From Escherichia coli (GTDB taxonomy: Bacteria > Pseudomonadota > Gammaproteobacteria > Enterobacterales > Enterobacteriaceae), in assembly GCF_030013205.1 (NCBI RefSeq), contig NZ_CP122648.1: a DNA stretch of 64,000 bases, one strand, 5' to 3'. Both the position numbers and the translations under genes were made by a program. Shown piece by piece: positions 20,790-47,774 of the stretch. Positions within the stretch are counted from its first letter, which is position 1. Each line of letters begins with the position of its first letter. Below the pieces are notes generated by a model that was given only the letters and a program-made list of their open reading frames with translations, did no database searches and had not been told where the DNA came from.

Positions 20790-21520
20790 GCATAGCCGGA
20801 GGTTTTTCAAATGCGCCTATAAGGCTCTCTTACCAGCCGCGCCCTAACAGGCGCACACGATCTGACATTTGCATCCAACTTCGTTACTTACGGCCCGTAA
20901 ACGGGCTGCCCGGATAGGGAATCGATAACTGCTCTCCCATTTTATCCTCTTCAAGCTGGTGCTTTATGTAATCCTGTATCTTCGCCGTGTTCTTACCCAC
21001 CGTATCGACGTAGTACCCTCTGCACCAGAACTCTCTGTTCCTGTATTTGAATTTCAAATCACCAAACTGCTCGTAAAGCATCAGACTGCTTTTCCCTTTC
21101 AGATATCCCATAAAGCCGGATACGCTCATTTTGGGCGGGATCTCCACAAGCATATGGATATGATCTGCACAGCATTCAGCTTCAAGAATCCGTACGCTTT
21201 TCCACTCACACAGCTTTCTCAAAATACTGCCTATTGCTCTACGCTTCTCTCTGTAGAACACTTGTCTTCGGTATTTTGGCGCAAAAACTATGTGATATTT
21301 ACAGTTCCATCGGGTGTGCGCTAAGCTCTTTTCGTTCCCCATTGGGACCCCCTTTTGATTTCTTGTTTGACACTTGCAGTTGCCAGACCGCAAGGTGTTT
21401 TAACAAATCAAAAGGGGTTTTAATAACTGGCTCAAAGCTGAAAGCTTTCCGGAACCCCCAGCCTAGCTGGGGGTTTTCTGTGCACAAAAAAAACGCCGAC
21501 AATGTGCCGACGTTTTGATA
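20790..21520 (-). mobile_element. IS200-type insertion sequence (IS200/IS605 family); boundaries approximate
   Basis: The ycaL-aroA spacer is ~880 bp and contains a Y1 transposase ORF with flanking hairpins (e.g. CCCCCAGCCTAGCTGGGGG at ~21463-21485); ends not mapped precisely. Confidence 0.6.
20884..21342 (-). CDS. tnpA: IS200 transposase TnpA (HuH/Y1 single-strand transposase), 152 aa
   Basis: MGNEKSLAHTRWNCKYHIVFAPKYRR...ADHIHML (HuH motif)...; near-identical to recalled IS200 TnpA. Confidence 0.9.
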   Translation of the reverse strand: MGNEKSLAHTRWNCKYHIVFAPKYRRQVFYREKRRAIGSILRKLCEWKSVRILEAECCADHIHMLVEIPPKMSVSGFMGYLKGKSSLMLYEQFGDLKFKYRNREFWCRGYYVDTVGKNTAKIQDYIKHQLEEDKMGEQLSIPYPGSPFTGRK

Positions 21521-39223: not shown

Positions 39224-39393
39224 AATGGCTCACTCAAGCTTGCTCACGATTGATTCCAGTAACAAACCGTATTGTGTAATTATTTCTATAGCAGGTCGCT
39301 ATATAGGCTTGTATACATCGAATAATTTGAAAATCAAAGAGATAGGTAGATTTTCACTCGAAAGTAGTATTACGTGTAAGTGAGGAGTAATTA

Positions 39394-39407
39394 TTGTTCG
39401 GTATCAA
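39394..39407 (-). promoter_or_regulatory. Putative FNR-like half-site pair upstream of dmsA
   Basis: TTGTT-CGGT-ATCAA resembles the FNR consensus; distance to the dmsA start (~180 bp) makes assignment uncertain. Confidence 0.25.
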
Positions 39408-39419
39408 AGGGAGACAAAA

Positions 39420-39439
39420 AAAGCGCCCGCAGGCGCTTT
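39420..39439. repeat. attL: 20-bp direct repeat AAAGCGCCCGCAGGCGCTTT (prophage boundary)
   Basis: Identical copy at 60471-60490; palindromic stem; here followed on the minus strand by a T-run, i.e. the intact host terminator context. Confidence 0.8.
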
Positions 39440-39522
39440 AACGTTTCTTGCTCCCCCTGATGATTTACTTATTTTTCAACGAATAAGCCAAAACAGGGGG
39501 AACAAATTAACACAAATTATAA

Positions 39523-40584: not shown

Positions 40585-40926
40585 TCAGCCAACATTGCGG
40601 CCTGATCGGGGTGATTTTTGGGTAATACCGATTGAAACCTGATCGCCCTCCGACTGAATAGATCCATCAAGAGAGAGAGCCGGAGCAATCTGCCCGGCGA
40701 CAGGTAGCGTCTTATCTTTTATTAGCCACAGCATGTATTTTTCAAAGCGATCGACTTGCAGAACCGCCTCAACGATTTTTGCTCTAGCGTTCTTTTGCCC
40801 CGATTCGTAATTCCTTATGGTTGCCAAAGACAACCCAGTAATATCCGCAAACTGCTTTTGTGTTAACCCTTCCGCCTTACGTATCTGACGTAACTTTTTT
40901 GCATAGTCTATTGACAAGATAACCAT
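40585..40926 (-). CDS. Prophage repressor (P2 C-like, HTH)
   Basis: HTH LTQKQFADITGLSLATIRNYESG and C-terminal GQIAPAL motif resembling P2 C; start uncertain (ORF extends to 40980). Confidence 0.75.
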   Translation of the reverse strand: MVILSIDYAKKLRQIRKAEGLTQKQFADITGLSLATIRNYESGQKNARAKIVEAVLQVDRFEKYMLWLIKDKTLPVAGQIAPALSLDGSIQSEGDQVSIGITQKSPRSGRNVG

Positions 40927-43853: not shown

Positions 43854-44057
43854 ATGGCAATTAAGCGTTTTTCCGTCATTCGTTTCACATCCAGAGGGCG
43901 TGAATACGAGGTTGACGAACGGCTGATTAAAACGCTCGACCGTCACCGTTCGCAACCTGACGCGCATCACATTTACCTCACTGACGACACTTACTTCTGC
44001 GCCACCAACGTGGTGCAGGTGAATCTTATCAGACAGGTACAGGAGTCACGCAGATGA
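43854..44057 (+). CDS. Hypothetical phage protein, 67 aa
   Basis: 4-bp overlap with the next gene. Confidence 0.45.
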   Translation: MAIKRFSVIRFTSRGREYEVDERLIKTLDRHRSQPDAHHIYLTDDTYFCATNVVQVNLIRQVQESRR

Positions 44058-44299
44058 CCATTCTGGACTACATCACAGCCAATCCGGGTTGTAGCGGTGG
44101 AGAAATCGCCGCCGCGCTGAATACCCCAACCACAGCCATTAATGCTGAGTTGCGCCGACTCTGGCGTGACGGCTTAGTCATCAGAGAAGAGCGCAAAACA
44201 GGCGGTCGGTTCTCTTACCAGGTAAACCCGATGCCGTTCGGGTGTGGCAACCCACTTACTCACATGTTTAACCAGCTACTGAAGGAAGCCAGAGCATGA
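44054..44299 (+). CDS. Small winged-helix-like DNA-binding protein, 81 aa
   Basis: Segment GCSGGEIAAALNTPTTAINAELRRLWRDGLV resembles a wHTH recognition helix; ATGA-coupled on both sides. Confidence 0.45.
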   Translation: MTILDYITANPGCSGGEIAAALNTPTTAINAELRRLWRDGLVIREERKTGGRFSYQVNPMPFGCGNPLTHMFNQLLKEARA

Positions 44300-44595
44300 G
44301 CACCATCAACCACCAGGAACTACGCGAACTGGCGACTGACCTGCAACGAATGGCAACGCATCAAAAATTACTGGCGTTTCGCGCAATGCTCTCGCCATCT
44401 GCCGTGTTGGCACTACTGGATGAGCTGGAGCACGCCAGAACCACAGCGCCAGCCATTCGCCTGACGCTCCATCATGAAATCGCTGATTTCTGTGCACCAC
44501 TGGGTTCACCTGGCGAACCGGAAACACCGGAAGCAATGCAGCGAGAGCTGCTGCAACGCATCGACAAGGTTTTTGATTTTTTCCTTAACCAGTAA
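44296..44595 (+). CDS. Hypothetical phage protein, 99 aa
   Basis: Coupled ORF. Confidence 0.45.
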   Translation: MSTINHQELRELATDLQRMATHQKLLAFRAMLSPSAVLALLDELEHARTTAPAIRLTLHHEIADFCAPLGSPGEPETPEAMQRELLQRIDKVFDFFLNQ

Positions 44596-44606
44596 GGGAT
44601 CGCAGC

Positions 44607-44810
44607 ATGAACAAAAAGACCTGGTTTCGCGCATACATGTGGGCGCTGGTATGCGTCCTCGTTTCTCTCATTCTGTATGCAGGACTCCTCCCCCGAATGA
44701 TTTCATCAGACAGCTCCTTCCTGGTATTGCTGGGCATTTTCATTGCCATGCTGTACCCGGCAGGCGTTGTTCGCCTTTTCAGTAAGTACATCAAGGAAAT
44801 CAAACAATGA
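44607..44810 (+). CDS. Small two-helix membrane protein, 67 aa (possible NfeD-like partner)
   Basis: Two hydrophobic helices; stop overlaps the start of the SPFH gene (ATGA). Confidence 0.5.
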   Translation: MNKKTWFRAYMWALVCVLVSLILYAGLLPRMISSDSSFLVLLGIFIAMLYPAGVVRLFSKYIKEIKQ

Positions 44811-45637
44811 AGAAATTCAAACTCTTTCAGATTATCCCTCTTTTTGCCGCCATCCTGCTGGTTGGTTGCGATCGTGTTGAGCCAGGTAATGTGGGCATCA
44901 AAGTCAACAAACTGGGCGACGACAAAGGCGTCGGTGAAGTGGTTGGTGTTGGCCGCTACTGGACTGGCTGGAATACCGAGGTTTACATCTTCCCGACCTT
45001 CAAACAAATGAAGACCTACGATGAGCCGTTCAGCTTCCAGATGAGTGACGGCACAACCATCGGCTATCACATCGGTGTGGCCTACAAGGTTGATCCATCC
45101 AAAGTTACTACAGTGTTTCAGACCTACCGCAAAGGCGTGGATGACATTACCGACACTGACCTGCGCCAGAAGATCGCCGATGCACTCAACCGACTGGCCA
45201 GCAAAATGACCACCGACAAATTTATCGACGGCGGGAAATCTGAACTACTGGATGCAGCTCTTAAAGACATTCAGGAGGAAATGACACCCATCGGTATTCA
45301 GGTAATGAGCCTCTCATATGTGGGTAAGCCGGAGTACCCGTCAACCGTTATCGACAGCATTAATGCCAAAGTCACGGCAAACCAGAAAACCCTGCAACGC
45401 GAACAGGAAGTCAAGCAACGTGAAGCAGAAGCCAACATGTTGCGCGCAGAAGCTGCCGGACAGGCTGATGCCATTCGCACAAAAGCCCAGGCTGAAGCCG
45501 ACGCCATTCGTTTACGCGGTGAAGCTCTGCGCCAGAATCCCGGCGTTATGGAGCTGGAAGCAATCAACAAATGGAACGGCACGCTGCCGCAATACATGAC
45601 CAGCAATACCGCTGTTCCGTTTGTTCCGGTGAAGTAA
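44807..45637 (+). CDS. SPFH/band-7 (stomatin/prohibitin-like) lipoprotein, 276 aa
   Basis: Lipobox LLVGC; SPFH-like core followed by an Ala/Glu-rich coiled coil (REAEANMLRAEAAGQADAIRTKAQAEADAIRLRGEA). Confidence 0.65.
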   Translation: MKKFKLFQIIPLFAAILLVGCDRVEPGNVGIKVNKLGDDKGVGEVVGVGRYWTGWNTEVYIFPTFKQMKTYDEPFSFQMSDGTTIGYHIGVAYKVDPSKVTTVFQTYRKGVDDITDTDLRQKIADALNRLASKMTTDKFIDGGKSELLDAALKDIQEEMTPIGIQVMSLSYVGKPEYPSTVIDSINAKVTANQKTLQREQEVKQREAEANMLRAEAAGQADAIRTKAQAEADAIRLRGEALRQNPGVMELEAINKWNGTLPQYMTSNTAVPFVPVK

Positions 45638-46004
45638 TTAAACCCGGCCAGTGAAAATCACTGGCCGGAGCAGTATCAGGATTTTTTAGTATGCCGTTCT
45701 CACAAAAAAACCGCTTGCCATGCCGCAATCAGTCAGGTTACATTTCCGCTGCACCTCATAAAACGGGTGCCGGGATTTCCACCCCGCTGACAACCAAAGC
45801 GCACAACCGCGCCAGCGGTTTTTTTGTGCGTACCGTATCGCCACGTCTTTTTCGCACACGAATTATGGTGGGGCGTATGGGGCCGACTTCGGTCGGGCCG
45901 GGTTCTTTGGTTGCCGGTTGTGGAAACCCTGTACGTCTCACCACCCCGAGTTTTCCACCTCTGGATGGTGAGTTTTCAAAACTTACAACCAAAGAGGCCA
46001 CACC

Positions 46005-46235
46005 ATGGCAAACCGCAAACAACAGCGCACATACGCTGCGCGTCGTCACATCCAGACTGAAATCAACCGCAGACTTTTCCGCGCATTCCGCGTCGCGCAA
46101 ATCATGCACATCAATATGCTGCATGAACGCAGTCACGCACTATCGAACAGCTATTCCGCCTCTGTTTTCAGCTATCTGGCGGATGATCTGCGCGAGCTTC
46201 AGCAGCTCATCCAGCAGCAAAACAAACTCCATTAA
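46005..46235 (+). CDS. Hypothetical small basic protein, 76 aa
   Basis: ORF downstream of a structured non-coding stretch. Confidence 0.35.
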   Translation: MANRKQQRTYAARRHIQTEINRRLFRAFRVAQIMHINMLHERSHALSNSYSASVFSYLADDLRELQQLIQQQNKLH

Positions 46236-46307
46236 TTCCTGTTCCGGGCCTTTCCTGCACCTTGCGGCGGGAGGCCTTCGCACATCTGTAACAAGAGGAG
46301 TGCCGCA

Positions 46308-46673
46308 ATGATTCTCGCCAACGACTTTCTTGAATACCTGCTCAACACAGAGCGTGATCTTGCCGTTCGCGTGCGTGACCGTTATGACATGTACCTGAAA
46401 TCCCTGCCTGTACCGCAGCTCGCTGACGGAAAGATTGTTATTGATGGCCGCTACATGATTGACAGCCACGAGGGAAATTACAGGCTTTACCGCATTGAAG
46501 GCGGCACCCCGTCCGTTATTGGCATTTACCAGCGCCCATCCTCTGCGATCGTCGATGTGATTGCAGACAGCATCCGCATCACACATCACTATGCCGACAC
46601 AGAAGACACCGTGCTGGAAATTCAGCGGCTGGCTACAGTCTGCCGCGACACCCTGAATGGCATGACGAAGTAA
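46308..46673 (+). CDS. Hypothetical phage protein, 121 aa
   Basis: Tightly packed with downstream ORFs. Confidence 0.45.
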   Translation: MILANDFLEYLLNTERDLAVRVRDRYDMYLKSLPVPQLADGKIVIDGRYMIDSHEGNYRLYRIEGGTPSVIGIYQRPSSAIVDVIADSIRITHHYADTEDTVLEIQRLATVCRDTLNGMTK

Positions 46674-46679
46674 ATCACT

Positions 46680-46967
46680 ATGACAGCAGAGTACATCAGG
46701 GACTGGCAACAACCGCGCCACGCAGTGGGGCGTGAAGGAACGGGGATCCCTGCTCCTGAAGCGGTGGAAGGTGTCGCAACGTCACAGGCCGACATTATCG
46801 ACCGTTTTAATGCGCTGGAAACCCGCCATCAGCAGGACAGCCAGAAAATCACTTTACTGACCACAGAGCTGACAGCACTGAAGGAAAAACTGCGCACGCA
46901 GGACGGCGATCCGCAGAACCGGTTCACCGCAACGGGCGCAGCCTCCGATCAACTGGCTGACTTCTGA
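46680..46967 (+). CDS. Hypothetical phage protein, 95 aa
   Basis: Tightly packed ORF. Confidence 0.45.
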   Translation: MTAEYIRDWQQPRHAVGREGTGIPAPEAVEGVATSQADIIDRFNALETRHQQDSQKITLLTTELTALKEKLRTQDGDPQNRFTATGAASDQLADF

Positions 46968-46990
46968 TAAGACAAAGGAGCAAATTTTTT

Positions 46991-47254
46991 ATGAATCTGG
47001 TGATGTCAGATATTACCCGCAACAAGCTGGGTTGCTATATGGCGCAGCAGGCGTCGCTTAACAACATCCCGGTATCTGCACTGGTATCGCGATTTACCGT
47101 GGAACCCTCGGTGTCCGCCATTGCTGCCGCACTGCATGTGCACGGTGTGCAACGCGTGGAAATAATCGAACCCACACAGAATATGGCCATCAGCGACATA
47201 CAGGCGGCGCGCTGTGAGTCATTCACCATCAGCGAAGGTGGACGCAATGAGTAA
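46991..47254 (+). CDS. Short ORF (87 aa) overlapping the gpI start; possibly a 3' remnant of baseplate gene J
   Basis: 8-bp overlap with gpI as expected for a J/I junction; far shorter than P2 J (~300 aa). Confidence 0.35.
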   Translation: MNLVMSDITRNKLGCYMAQQASLNNIPVSALVSRFTVEPSVSAIAAALHVHGVQRVEIIEPTQNMAISDIQAARCESFTISEGGRNE

Positions 47255-47774
47255 TTCGCTGTTACCACCATCAGCCAGCAATTTCATGCGTTGTGCCGAA
47301 GCCGTCGGGACACGCATTACAGACATTCCGGTAGACCTCAACACGCTGTGGTCGCCGGATACCTGCCCGGTGCATCTGCTGCCTTATCTCGCCTGGGCAT
47401 TTTCCGTTGACCGCTGGGATCGCAACTGGCCGGAAGAGACAAAGCGACAGGTGATTCGTGATGCATGGCTGATACACCGACACAAGGGAACCATCAGCGC
47501 ACTGCGCCGGGCCATTGAGCCGCTGGGATATCTCATTCGTGTGTCTGAGTGGTGGGAGTTCGACGGCGAACCCGGAACATTCAAGGTTGATGTTGGCACG
47601 CTGGACAGTGGTGTGACCGAGGAAATGTATCTGGAAATGGAACGGCTGATTGCCGATGCCAAACCCGCAAGTCGCCACCTTATCGGCCTGAACATTATCC
47701 AGGACATTCCTGGCTATCTGTATACAGGCGGTGTGGTCTGTGATGGTGATGTTATTACTGTTTATCCCGGATAA
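47247..47774 (+). CDS. Baseplate/tail protein I (P2 gpI family), 175 aa
   Basis: MSNSLLPP...LWSPDTCPVHLLPYLAWAFSVDRWD...ERLIADAKPASRHLIGLNI matches recalled P2 gpI. Confidence 0.85.
   Translation: MSNSLLPPSASNFMRCAEAVGTRITDIPVDLNTLWSPDTCPVHLLPYLAWAFSVDRWDRNWPEETKRQVIRDAWLIHRHKGTISALRRAIEPLGYLIRVSEWWEFDGEPGTFKVDVGTLDSGVTEEMYLEMERLIADAKPASRHLIGLNIIQDIPGYLYTGGVVCDGDVITVYPG

Follow-up and report, generated by a model that had tools for sequence, protein, structure and literature searches.

A probable IsrK-C4 RNA switch ahead of an epsilon-like gene in a defective P2-like prophage of Escherichia coli

The locus and its two RNAs

In a 64,000-nucleotide stretch of Escherichia coli DNA (referred to as the window), the stop codon of an SPFH gene is followed by a G+C-rich hairpin, a promoter-like site, two structured RNAs and two small ORFs, and a 206-codon frame runs across most of this interval (Table 1). 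The host of this IsrK-C4 cassette is a P88-like remnant of a P2-family prophage, in whose early operon the cassette lies. The prophage repressor is P2 C-like (40585-40926 in the window), a class targeted by Eps. The prophage is defective: gene A breaks off at ~46763 and continues into GPO and capsid fragments. Two independent ETEC isolates from pigs had exactly the same locus sequence, and three places in the host genome matched the query. Copies related to the locus were found in 1283 of 5426 complete E. coli genomes (~24%), and 1,478 E. coli copies were counted. Neither isrK nor C4 was detected in the early region of P2 (24.5-30.5 kb); the cassette is thus a feature of the P88-like lineage and not general to P2-like phages.

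In the genome annotation, PGAP lists an "ash family protein" pseudogene at this locus, with both RNAs missing. Two minus-strand ORFs across the interval, one of 126 aa at 45756-46136 and one of 62 aa that is annotated in P88, had no family matches and were taken as chance ORFs. A tRNA/tmRNA scan of 45500-46200 found none. Terminator-like sites were over-represented at 44400-47000 (13 found, 2.9 ± 1.7 expected), and the fold of the leader at 45751-46020 had a z score of -3.9.

Table 1. Positions of the sequence features, numbered from the first base of the window.
Feature	Position	Strand	Description
Hairpin 1	45643..45669	+	G+C-rich stem-loop, 11-12 bp, 6 nt past the SPFH stop codon
Ash / P4 Eta-like frame, 206 codons	45691..46311	+	ORF list; Pfam Phage_ASH
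Putative isrK promoter	45715..45744	+	-35 TTGCCA, 18-nt spacer, -10 TACATT (promoter scan, consensus match only)
IsrK sRNA (seqA / a1b1 equivalent)	45751..45825	+	75 nt; Rfam RF01394
a1 site UUUCCAC	45776..45782	+	loop of the second hairpin within IsrK; complementary to C4 a'
b1 site CAACCAAAG	45791..45799	+	single-stranded in IsrK; complementary to the C4 b' loop
IsrK intrinsic terminator	45805..45825	+	hairpin 2 + U7; terminator scan; final helix of the isrK model in Rfam
C4-type antisense RNA (P4 CI / Salmonella STnc1160 equivalent)	45861..45948	+	88 nt; Rfam RF01695
b' recognition loop GUUCUUUGGUUG	45902..45913	+	12-nt C4 loop
a' recognition segment GUGGAAA	45920..45926	+	unpaired junction between the second C4 hairpin and the outer stem
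a2 site UUUCCAC	45952..45958	+	loop of a hairpin formed by the C4 outer-stem 3' strand CUCACCA and downstream UGGUGAG
b2 site CAACCAAAGA	45986..45997	+	overlaps the Shine-Dalgarno AAGAGG (45992-97) of the 76-aa ORF
76-aa ORF (ORF76)	46005..46235	+	P4 epsilon "helper derepression" homologue; Pfam PF25738, phrog_3688
121-aa ORF (ORF121)	46308..46673	+	second gene under the switch; phrog_3237, E 4e-54

A preliminary description of this sequence had listed three strong hairpins, all of which were present at the positions it gave, and had proposed either a small RNA or a terminator cluster. The small RNA was borne out twice over. The Rfam scan and RNA folding that it had suggested as a check matched two families, isrK (45751-45825) and C4 (45861-45948), both above the gathering score, and both structures carried compensatory changes in 18 homologues. 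The isrK match covered the full model (1-77/77) with 64.3 bits (gathering score 50, E 1e-12). The RNA consists of a 5' hairpin, a second hairpin with the a1 site, a single-stranded b1 site and an intrinsic terminator. The terminator is the second hairpin of the preliminary description, ACCGC-GCCA-GCGGT at 45806-45819, followed by seven T residues at 45819-45825; the terminator scan lists it at 45805-45820, and two of its pairs covary. The isrK structure as a whole comprises 16 pairs that were 97.6% paired in the 18 homologues, with 7 pairs doubly changed, a covariation score reached by 0 of 500 shuffles. The upstream sites were also considered as a member of the Rfam family c4-a1b1 (RF03163, threshold 46.7 bits), which scored 42-48 bits at other loci; this assignment was rejected, since the model had no match at E <= 1 in 44000-47500, though the a1 and b1 sites are present.

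Transcription from the putative isrK promoter is predicted to start 6-7 nt downstream of it, which is the first base of the isrK match. This site matches the consensus at 9 of 12 positions, in a scan whose sites were no more numerous than expected by chance. By eye, a -35/-10 pair lies at an equal distance from the isrK +1 position in most other loci (e.g., TTGACT-17-TATATT and TTGACA-17-TATATT), the phiV10 pair being not clear-cut.

The C4 RNA starts 35 nt past the end of IsrK and was matched over the full model (1-87/87) with 80.5 bits (gathering score 45, E 2e-15). A 17-bp outer stem (45866-82 with 45927-43) encloses the UUCG hairpin CCGAC-TTCG-GTCGG (45883-45896) as well as another hairpin (45897-45918), and b' is the 12-nt loop of the latter. 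The minimum free energy fold of the 88 nt reproduced the three helices of the Rfam structure at -43.2 kcal/mol (z = -3.4; 0 of 200 shuffles). All 27 pairs were 100% paired in the 18 homologues, 13 of them doubly changed (0 of 500 shuffles), and slid controls were 35-47% paired. In P1 and P4, a stable C4-type RNA of ~77 nt is produced by RNase P processing of a longer transcript; only insofar as RNase P acts on it in relatives can C4 loosely be called tRNA-like. IsrK followed by C4 was found in 17 of 17 fetched phage loci and in P4, with a spacer of 23-35 nt (~107 nt in P4). Phage P88, which has been sequenced and was obtained as infective particles (PMC5285337), has the same Rfam scores as the locus.

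Hairpin 1, with the sequence CCGGCCAGTGA-AAA-TCACTGGCCGG at 45644-45668 and an 11-bp stem, folded at -23.9 kcal/mol in its 63-nt context (z = -4.6), a stability that 0 of 200 shuffles reached. The terminator scan scored it as terminator-like on the minus strand only, and the T-run on the plus strand begins 13 nt beyond the stem. It is present in P88 and E. coli 89-3156 with wobble-compatible changes and missing in the relatives without the SPFH cassette. Hairpin 1 is the 3' end of the inserted SPFH cassette and unrelated to the RNA switch, and it probably acts as an mRNA-stabilising hairpin or a weak bidirectional terminator. The hairpins do not form the proposed terminator cluster: only the second one is a canonical intrinsic terminator, that of IsrK, the UUCG hairpin lies inside C4, and hairpin 1 lacks an adjoining U-run on the plus strand.

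Recognition sites and their covariation

Two segments of C4 have perfect complements of 7 nt and 9-10 nt on both sides of the RNA, at 45776-82, 45791-99, 45952-58 and 45986-95. The predicted duplexes of b' had energies of -13.9 kcal/mol with b1 and -14.2 kcal/mol with b2, and those of a' had energies of -8.3 kcal/mol with a1 and -8.2 kcal/mol with a2. Across the 64-kb window, the b 9-mer has no occurrences besides the three at b1, b' (as its complement) and b2. When 45751-46020 was folded as one molecule, a1 and b1 were paired with a' and b' in the minimum free energy structure and b' was paired with b2 in the centroid. The stem flanking a2, taken from the fold of 45930-46010, covaries by eye in N15 and Ss-VASD.

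The same arrangement was found across 19 loci, in spite of 12 variants of a' and 15 variants of b' among them. A 7-nt complement of a' was located at a fixed position of isrK and again 2-7 nt past C4 in all 19, and a complement of the b' loop was located 5-14 nt before the downstream ATG in 18 of the 19, the exception being cdtI, where the longest exact b' complement lies elsewhere. The duplex with the own target had an energy of about -22 kcal/mol, compared with -12 to -13 kcal/mol for non-cognate targets; among the non-cognate pairs (n = 320), none reached the median cognate value for isrK and 0.9% reached it for the downstream sites. Twelve near-identical P88-like sequences contained 10 different a/b combinations, in which the three copies of each site co-vary, and the variation among these twelve was 6.6-fold enriched in the six recognition sites (p 1e-9). 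In P88 itself, b' is GUUCUGUAGUUG.

By analogy with the relatives studied by experiment, the specificity of immunity would be set by the a and b sequences, which are UUUCCAC and CAACCAAAG in the present locus. The antisense/target logic of a1/b1, a'/b' and a2/b2 had been overlooked in the preliminary description. It joins the separate pieces and extends them to the start of the next gene.

Downstream genes, the Ash frame and alternative readings

The Shine-Dalgarno sequence AAGAGG beneath b2 lies 7 nt before the ATG of ORF76 at 46005. ORF76 had a weak match to the Derepression family PF25738 (29 bits, cut-off 27), a full-length match to phrog_3688 (E 8e-45), and 30% identity to P4 Eps over 66 aa by BLASTP (E 3e-8). 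Its reading frame had a pN/pS of 0.3-0.55 and a third-position bias. Judging from the complementarity of b' and b2, C4 can occlude the ribosome-binding site of ORF76, a putative anti-repressor. ORF121, whose start codon shares bases with the stop codon of the Ash/Eta-like frame, had no match in Pfam or NCBIfam and no similarity to P4 ORF151; the parallel with P4 therefore ends at epsilon. Neither ORF matched the Icd, Ant, KilA or Bro families in Pfam, PHROGs or NCBIfam, and a search of both ORFs and the Ash frame against NCBIfam returned nothing meaningful.

The Ash frame starts upstream of the putative isrK promoter, behind an SD-like AGGA (45679-82), covers isrK, C4, a2/b2 and, in another frame, the entire 76-aa gene, and ends with a TGA that overlaps the ATG of ORF121 (ATGA). 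Relative to it, the ORF76 ATG is in frame +2. It matched Phage_ASH (PF10554) with 30 bits (cut-off 26) over aa 17-111 as well as PHROGs 995, 6928 and 821, and P4 Eta matched Phage_ASH with 82 bits over the equivalent span. Among the P88-like relatives, the frame was open and free of indels over 617 nt in 11 relatives, the ATGA end was kept in 11 of 12 sequences (not in L026), and the probability that no substitution would create a stop was ~0.005. Its pN/pS, with ranges taken over all pairs differing by >5 nucleotides, was ~0.7-1 over the RNAs and 1.1-3.4 over the overlap with the 76-aa gene. To the preliminary description, this frame looked non-coding. The frame is real and shows no amino acid-level selection, but "non-coding" is too simple a label for a Phage_ASH / P4 Eta-like frame. 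A frame conserved in homologues, which that description had named as evidence against an RNA, was in formal terms found; the RNA reading is unharmed by it, as the frame is not under amino acid-level selection and owes its conservation to the RNAs that it overlaps. An open frame of this kind fits, on the substitution patterns, a regulatory translation in the style of P4.

The structured stretch is a known phage RNA switch, composed of the decoy IsrK, the antisense RNA C4 and their target sites. We read the interval as the controlling part of an RNA-based IsrK-C4 immunity cassette of the P1 c4 / P4 seqA-CI-seqC type, with a probability of about 0.8. The annotation instead implies a gene for a 206-aa transcriptional regulator of the "Ash family" at 45691-46311, in whose mRNA the hairpins would be incidental. 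In favor of such a gene are the above-threshold Phage_ASH match, the PHROG families named "transcriptional regulator/repressor", the calling of the ORF by PGAP and by phage annotators, and the open frame with its SD-like AGGA and its stop-start overlap with the next gene in the relatives examined. However, substitutions are spread evenly over its codon positions (12/13/12), the amino acid identity (0.75) falls below the nucleotide identity (0.85), and its pN/pS of 0.7-0.95 in the RNA part and 1.1-3.4 in the ORF76 part contrasts with the low values in the ORF76 frame. The variation in sequence follows RNA pairing and antisense/target covariation. Wherever it was found, in P4 Eta and in every long ORF, the Phage_ASH domain falls precisely on the RNA module, and in 5 of the 19 loci (F039, N15, Gifsy-1, phiV10 and PhiR12_2) the frame is interrupted despite intact RNAs. 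In Gifsy-1, orf45 is likewise conserved in nucleotides and variable in amino acids (PMC4825925). A conventional protein gene was rejected on the substitution patterns, and we consider the annotated regulator improbable.

Another reading, in which the stretch merely holds terminators that insulate the SPFH cassette from the downstream genes and produces no discrete regulatory RNA, could draw on the terminator-like hairpins at 45643-69 and 45805-25 on the plus-strand side and on the enrichment of such sites in the region. It is very improbable, given that hairpin 1 has no adjacent U-run on that strand, that the entire isrK-C4 block is kept in relatives without the SPFH cassette, that the UUCG hairpin sits in a three-helix RNA closed by 17 bp with 13 covarying pairs, and that a terminator model leaves the triple covariation of the a/b sites unexplained. 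The cassette might alternatively be an intact-looking relic that controls nothing important, or at most acts in trans on prophages of the same specificity. The truncation of gene A has removed the main downstream output, and the three matching places in the host genome mean that targets in trans may exist. On the other hand, the RNA pairs, the six recognition sites, the promoter-like site, ORF76 and ORF121 are all undamaged, the Rfam scores are the same as in an infective phage, and two independent isolates carry the identical sequence. A relic of this kind is a serious candidate, though on balance we think it unlikely.

Relation to known switches and proposed regulation

The locus is an ordinary representative of an already known system, in which IsrK corresponds to seqA and C4 to CI, and which has been named the "IsrK-C4 immunity system" (PMC3632133); both RNAs belong to curated Rfam families. 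As in the P4 immunity region, isrK-type and C4-type RNAs occur in matching order on one strand, target sites flank the antisense RNA on both sides, a long Phage_ASH frame that starts upstream of the internal promoter runs over the RNAs, and an epsilon-family gene, an ORF of unknown function and a replication gene follow. The two differ in the isrK-C4 spacer (35 nt here and ~107 nt in P4) and in the first gene past b2, which is the epsilon homologue outside the Ash frame here and kil, in-frame within eta, in P4. The replication gene encodes a P2-type A endonuclease here and the alpha primase in P4. Furthermore, P4 is a satellite with RNA as its sole immunity factor, whereas the present element is of the full-size P2-like phage type with a P2 C-type protein repressor.

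The immI region of P1/P7 (a1 b1 - c4 - a2 b2 - icd - ant) shares the Rfam C4 family, the a/b logic, a b2 site that covers the ribosome-binding site of the ORF next downstream, the definition of specificity by a few loop bases, from which P1/P7 heteroimmunity arises, and an anti-repressor as the regulated output. Heteroimmunity of P1 and P7 rests on c4, which blocks the ant ribosome-binding site (PMC12197685). Unlike P1/P7, the present locus has no Icd or Ant homologue in NCBIfam or Pfam searches, its candidate anti-repressor is epsilon-like and encoded by the first rather than the second ORF, and its upstream a1/b1 copy lies within a terminated sRNA, IsrK.

The Gifsy-1 isrK-orf45-anrP-isrJ module, from which IsrK, orf45, AnrP and a processed STnc1160 species of ~80 nt have been described (Hershko-Shalev et al., 2016, PMC4825925), contains the same isrK and C4 (STnc1160) families, and IsrK is complementary to the C4 region in both. 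In both, moreover, the outer stem of C4 has a pair of AUGs in one frame on its 5' strand (AUGGUGGGGCGUAUG; 45865 and 45877 here), with an ORF from a C4 AUG whose stop overlaps the next start (AUGA). That ORF has 45 codons in Gifsy-1, but 148 codons here, where a real gene lies across it in another frame. The two loci encode unrelated proteins downstream, AnrP being an ORF6N protein, no match to isrJ was found in the window by Rfam search, and the Gifsy-1 module does not lie inside an Ash frame that starts upstream. The anti-immunity system of N15 (CA RNA - icd - antA/B/C) and the isrK-C4 modules found in Stx/lambdoid prophages also have both Rfam families and a/b covariation, and both ncRNAs are annotated already in one Stx2 phage record (LC710660). 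The downstream genes of these systems, in contrast, are of the Rha/Ant type and are read in the same frame as Ash, and their hosts are lambdoid or telomere phages, not P2-like phages.

Most likely, the switch keeps the anti-repressor gene of this defective prophage silent. By analogy with P1, P4, N15 and Gifsy-1, transcripts from the internal promoter would mostly end at the IsrK terminator, and those that read through would be processed into stable C4 RNA, as in the relatives that have been studied. C4 may then pair with a2/b2 on further read-through transcripts and block translation of the 76-aa anti-repressor homologue. Polarity or Rho-dependent termination could silence the 121-aa gene as well, together with the replication gene A where a relative is intact. 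IsrK, which has both sites, would be a decoy that titrates C4 or competes with the pairing in cis, so the balance between IsrK and C4 would set the switch. Candidate outcomes of the pairing are a translational block as in P1, termination as in P4 and an activation driven by IsrK as in Gifsy-1. Transcripts from the upstream early promoter would include the ATG at 45691, and ribosomes translating the Ash/Eta-like frame through the RNAs may render these transcripts insensitive to the switch, as for P4 eta. According to the summary of Forti et al. (1999) in PMC10111431, translation of the long ORF from the upstream promoter suppresses immunity-specific termination in the eta/kil/CI region of P4.

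We tentatively suggest, as a possibility that goes well beyond the assignment of the cassette, that IsrK-C4 in P88-like phages may be the true decision point for induction or for helper-satellite conflict, which gates an epsilon-type anti-repressor against P2 C-type repressors of the phage itself or of rival prophages, with the a/b loops as a combinatorial RNA immunity code and the Ash frame kept open solely as a ribosome track by which transcripts from the early promoter bypass the switch. If so, Pfam Ash would be the shadow of an RNA module in protein space and not a usual protein family. As the Ash domain fell on the RNA module in every case examined, inferences of a "transcriptional regulator" from an Ash match are unsafe. 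With related copies in so many E. coli genomes, the annotation of such loci as "ash family protein" pseudogenes without their RNAs is a widespread error. A P2-like phage that carries the RNA switch of P4 together with an epsilon homologue ties the anti-helper weapon of a satellite to an ordinary gene cassette of helper-type phages. The specificity loops are highly diversified among otherwise near-identical prophages, and immunity groups at the RNA level could thus be read simply from the sequence.

IsrK and C4 RNAs in the early operon of a prophage remnant

Two full-length Rfam matches above the curated thresholds were found downstream of the SPFH gene: isrK, a probable decoy RNA equivalent to P4 seqA, and the C4 antisense RNA, equivalent to P4 CI. 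The Rfam scan had been proposed in the preliminary description, whose suggestion of a small RNA was borne out. A tRNA/tmRNA scan of the interval found none. All three hairpins described there were located at their positions. The second, together with its T-run, is the isrK terminator, and the UUCG hairpin forms the first of the inner C4 hairpins, within an 88-nt structure (fold z = -3.4). The 270-nt leader had a fold z of -3.9, and terminator-like sites were over-represented in 44400-47000 (13 observed vs 2.9 expected). A promoter-like site, recognized by consensus match only, ends 6 nt ahead of the first base of isrK, and in most other homologous loci a -35/-10 pair was seen by eye at the same distance.

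Both structures were established directly from alignments of 18 sequences. All cells of the 27 C4 pairs were paired (100%), with compensatory double changes in 13 pairs, and the covariation score was reached by 0 of 500 shuffles; when the structure was slid by one to three columns as a control, only 35-47% were paired. The 16 isrK pairs were 97.6% paired, seven of them with double changes. We consider it nearly certain (probability about 0.95) that the module is IsrK-C4.

Features of the interval and its surroundings (window positions; gene layout from the RefSeq annotation of a genome identical to the window)
Feature	Position	Remarks
Integrase, P2 C-like repressor, cox, several early genes		First in the annotated layout, ahead of the SPFH gene
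SPFH cassette	44596-45690	67-aa membrane ORF, SPFH gene, hairpin 1
SPFH lipoprotein gene	44807-45637	RefSeq
Hairpin 1	45644-45668	11-bp stem; fold z-score of context -4.6
Ash/Eta-like frame	45691-46311 (+)	206 codons
'ash family protein' pseudogene	45691-45963	RefSeq
Promoter-like site	45715-45744	TTGCCA-18-TACATT
isrK	45751-45825	RF01394, 64.3 bits (threshold 50)
a1	45776-45782	UUUCCAC, loop of second IsrK hairpin; exact complement of a'
b1	45791-45799	CAACCAAAG, inside IsrK; exact complement of b'
Hairpin 2	45806-45819	Seven T directly after
C4	45861-45948	RF01695, 80.5 bits (threshold 45)
UUCG hairpin	45883-45896	
b'	45902-45913	GUUCUUUGGUUG, 12-nt loop of second C4 hairpin, unpaired
a'	45920-45926	GUGGAAA, C4 junction, unpaired
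Alternative a2 hairpin	45935-45973	CUCACCA with UGGUGAG
a2	45952-45958	Downstream of C4; exact complement of a'
b2	45986-45995	CAACCAAAGA, downstream of C4; exact complement of b'
76-aa ORF (ORF76)	46005-46235	RefSeq
121-aa ORF (ORF121)	46308-46673	RefSeq
Replication gene A, truncated and fused to scaffold/capsid gene fragments; tail genes next		After ORF121; RefSeq

The interval was 100% identical in the chromosomes of the pig ETEC isolates ETEC4079 and ETEC1701 and 96% identical in phage P88 (P2 family, genus Xuanwuvirus). It lies in the prophage early operon, directly upstream of the start of gene A in intact relatives. Gene A is truncated here and joined to scaffold and capsid fragments, with tail genes next, which identifies the prophage as a remnant. 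A 95-aa ORF (46680-46967) is a chimera of the first ~26 gene A codons and the C-terminus of the GPO scaffold protein, its Pfam Phage_GPO match covering positions 200-267 of 268, with a capsid-gene fragment and then tail genes on its 3' side (46680-47254 region); thus, a large internal deletion took out replication and most head genes. The repressor is P2 C-like, with 35% identity here and 45% for P88. Two further Rfam matches scored above gathering, STnc490 (21352-21475, -, 146 bits) and STnc130 (39314-39448, +, 136 bits), the latter just outside the integrase gene, possibly where the attachment site lies.

Hairpin 1 is distinct from the RNA switch. It belongs to the SPFH cassette, an insertion that exactly abuts the stop of an Ea22-like gene on one side and the Ash/Eta-like ATG on the other. 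The cassette is missing from most relatives, among them phage 569R5, phage PhiR44_2 and the majority of sampled E. coli copies, which have an 11-nt junction at the site. No U-run adjoins the hairpin on the + strand, and at best it terminates weakly or in both directions, or stabilises the mRNA end. P1-like phages match the SPFH gene in its final 38 nt.

Recognition sites and probably regulated genes

C4 carries two recognition segments, a' and b', with exact complements inside IsrK (a1, b1) and downstream of C4 (a2, b2). Site b2 overlaps the ORF76 Shine-Dalgarno sequence AAGAGG, and the b 9-mer occurs in the 64-kb window only at b1, b' and b2. Among 19 loci, 12 a' and 15 b' variants were found; the a' complement was present at a constant isrK position and 2-7 nt past C4 in all 19, and the b' complement 5-14 nt ahead of the downstream ATG in 18. 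The mean duplex energy was -22 kcal/mol for cognate and -12 to -13 kcal/mol for non-cognate pairs; among the latter (n = 320), none reached the median cognate energy for the isrK target and 0.9% did so for the downstream target. Of the predicted folds, the minimum-energy structure joined a1/b1 to a'/b' and the centroid joined b' to b2.

The P88-like set comprised 12 sequences without indels between them, namely the window and 11 loci (L002-L005, L020-L026) at 84-96% identity to it. These contained 10 a/b combinations built from four a types and eight b types, which have apparently been reassorted, and the three copies of each site co-varied in all 12. Variable columns were 6.6-fold enriched in the six sites (Fisher p 1e-9). 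Relative to the window, P88 has two changed bases in each of the b1, b' and b2 sites, and in Citrobacter phage Shae_phiSM the changes affect a1, a' and a2. As read from the sequences, this co-variation is the signature of RNA-defined immunity specificity, for which P1/P7 heteroimmunity is the precedent (PMC12197685). One of the a types in the P88-like set, GUUGAGAA, also occurs in phage N15. In the C4 outer stem, the 3' strand can alternatively pair with a downstream segment, leaving a2 in a hairpin loop; the arms of this hairpin covary by eye in N15 (CUACCACC/GGUGGUAG) and in Shigella phage Ss-VASD (CCACCGC/GCGGUGG), which points to a conserved alternative fold of the transcript before processing.

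ORF76 matched the Pfam 'Derepression' family barely over the cut-off and P4 epsilon with 30% identity over 66 aligned residues (E 3e-8); its own frame is under purifying selection (pN/pS 0.3-0.55, third-position bias). P4 epsilon is the protein by which the satellite derepresses a P2 prophage. ORF121 is a conserved phage protein with no function assigned; in comparison with P4 ORF151 it showed no similarity.

By analogy with P1, P4, N15 and Gifsy-1, the switch probably works as follows. The internal promoter would fire constitutively, the majority of transcripts would terminate as IsrK, and read-through transcripts would be processed to C4. Pairing of C4 with a2/b2 would keep ORF76 from being translated and exert polarity on ORF121 and, in intact phages, gene A, while IsrK, having identical sites, would compete for C4. 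Transcripts from the early promoter would escape because ribosomes would translate the Ash/Eta-like frame across the region.

The Ash/Eta-like frame

The preliminary description had found the 206-codon frame to look non-coding and regarded a conserved coding frame in homologues as evidence against an RNA. Such a frame is formally present. It matched Pfam Phage_ASH with 30 bits (cut-off 26), the matching residues 17-111 coinciding exactly with isrK, C4 and the sites downstream, and is annotated as a 205-aa gene in two relatives. A conserved protein found no support. Substitutions in the P88-like sequences were even across codon positions (12/13/12), pN/pS was 0.7-0.95 over the RNAs and 1.1-3.4 over the ORF76 overlap, amino-acid identity was below nucleotide identity, and the frame was broken in five loci with intact RNAs. 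Therefore, the RNA reading stands. Judged from sequence comparison, the frame is nevertheless unlikely to be open by accident. Over 617 nt, 11 relatives have at least 222 substitution events but neither a stop nor an indel; under neutrality, a complete lack of stop-creating changes would have a probability of about 0.005. An overlapping frame, with the ORF76 protein sequence and local codon usage held constant, would be open with a chance of ~0.1 in the window type and 0.01 in the divergent Shae type. Of 12 relatives, 10 have the ATG ahead of the isrK promoter, and in 11 of 12 the stop and the next start codon overlap in the sequence ATGA, among them relatives in which another gene follows.

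This persistence agrees with reported P4 eta behaviour. According to the summary of Forti et al. (1999) in PMC10111431, eta, which harbours the CI RNA and an internal promoter that is constitutive, is translated solely from an upstream promoter, and this translation keeps immunity-specific termination from occurring. The persistence likewise agrees with Gifsy-1 orf45, which is conserved in nucleotide and variable in amino-acid sequence, is coupled translationally to the next gene through AUGA, and begins at the same pair of AUGs on the 5' side of the C4 stem (PMC4825925). The long lambdoid ORFs examined also carry the Ash domain on the stretch holding the module, with a similar pattern: upstream of isrK, the frame of an annotated 383-aa ORF was under no selection (pN/pS about 0.9; other frame about 0.42), and this ORF was selected as a gene (Rha domain, pN/pS 0.23) only past b2. 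Such ~383-aa 'antirepressor/transcriptional regulator' ORFs (homologous loci L007, L012, L013, L015, L016) reach ~360 nt upstream of isrK (-363 to -45) and are open even across lineages 28% diverged; the alternative frame there is a 59-aa ORF annotated in phage 1720a-02.

Phage_ASH (PF10554) fell on the isrK-C4-target module in every protein examined (window 45739-46023; P4, L019, 8329-8704; L015, L012, L018, L008, L010). The best score was that of P4 Eta, 82 bits over the seqA-CI-seqC region. PHROG families 995, 6928 and 821 ('transcriptional regulator/repressor') match the same stretch of the window frame. The Phage_ASH family looks like a translated shadow of the RNA module, which would make functional labels derived from it doubtful.

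Relation to known systems and distribution

Of the systems described so far, the P4 immunity region is closest, having the same RNAs and Ash/Eta frame, with epsilon next. Unlike in P4, the first regulated gene here is read in a different frame from Ash, the replication gene is of the P2 A type, and the element has its own protein repressor. P1 immI and Gifsy-1 isrK-orf45-anrP share the RNA logic but not the proteins. No isrK/C4 was found in the P2 early region. The equivalence of IsrK/C4 with seqA/CI and the presence of these RNAs in lambdoid prophages are published (PMC3632133, PMC10111431), and no description of the cassette in P88-like phages was found in the searchable literature; consequently, it was rated a member of a known system.

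By a sensitive DNA search, the block was recovered from 173 phage records, which comprise P88-like, Stx-converting and other lambdoid phages, N15, Gifsy-1, ST64B, phiV10 and one Hafnia phage. In all 17 fetched loci and P4, isrK preceded C4 on the same strand, all matches being above threshold, and both RNAs are already annotated in one Stx2 phage record. Ss-VASD (L008) also has an sRNA-Xcc1 match (RF02221, 2524-2607, 79.6 bits) ~130 nt past the isrK-C4-regulated gene, just before an anti-repressor gene. Related copies occurred in 1283 of 5426 complete E. coli genomes, in at most four places per genome. The source genome (NZ_CP122643.1, ETEC4079) has the module in three places, and if its other two copies share the specificity of the one in the window, cross-immunity would be implied.
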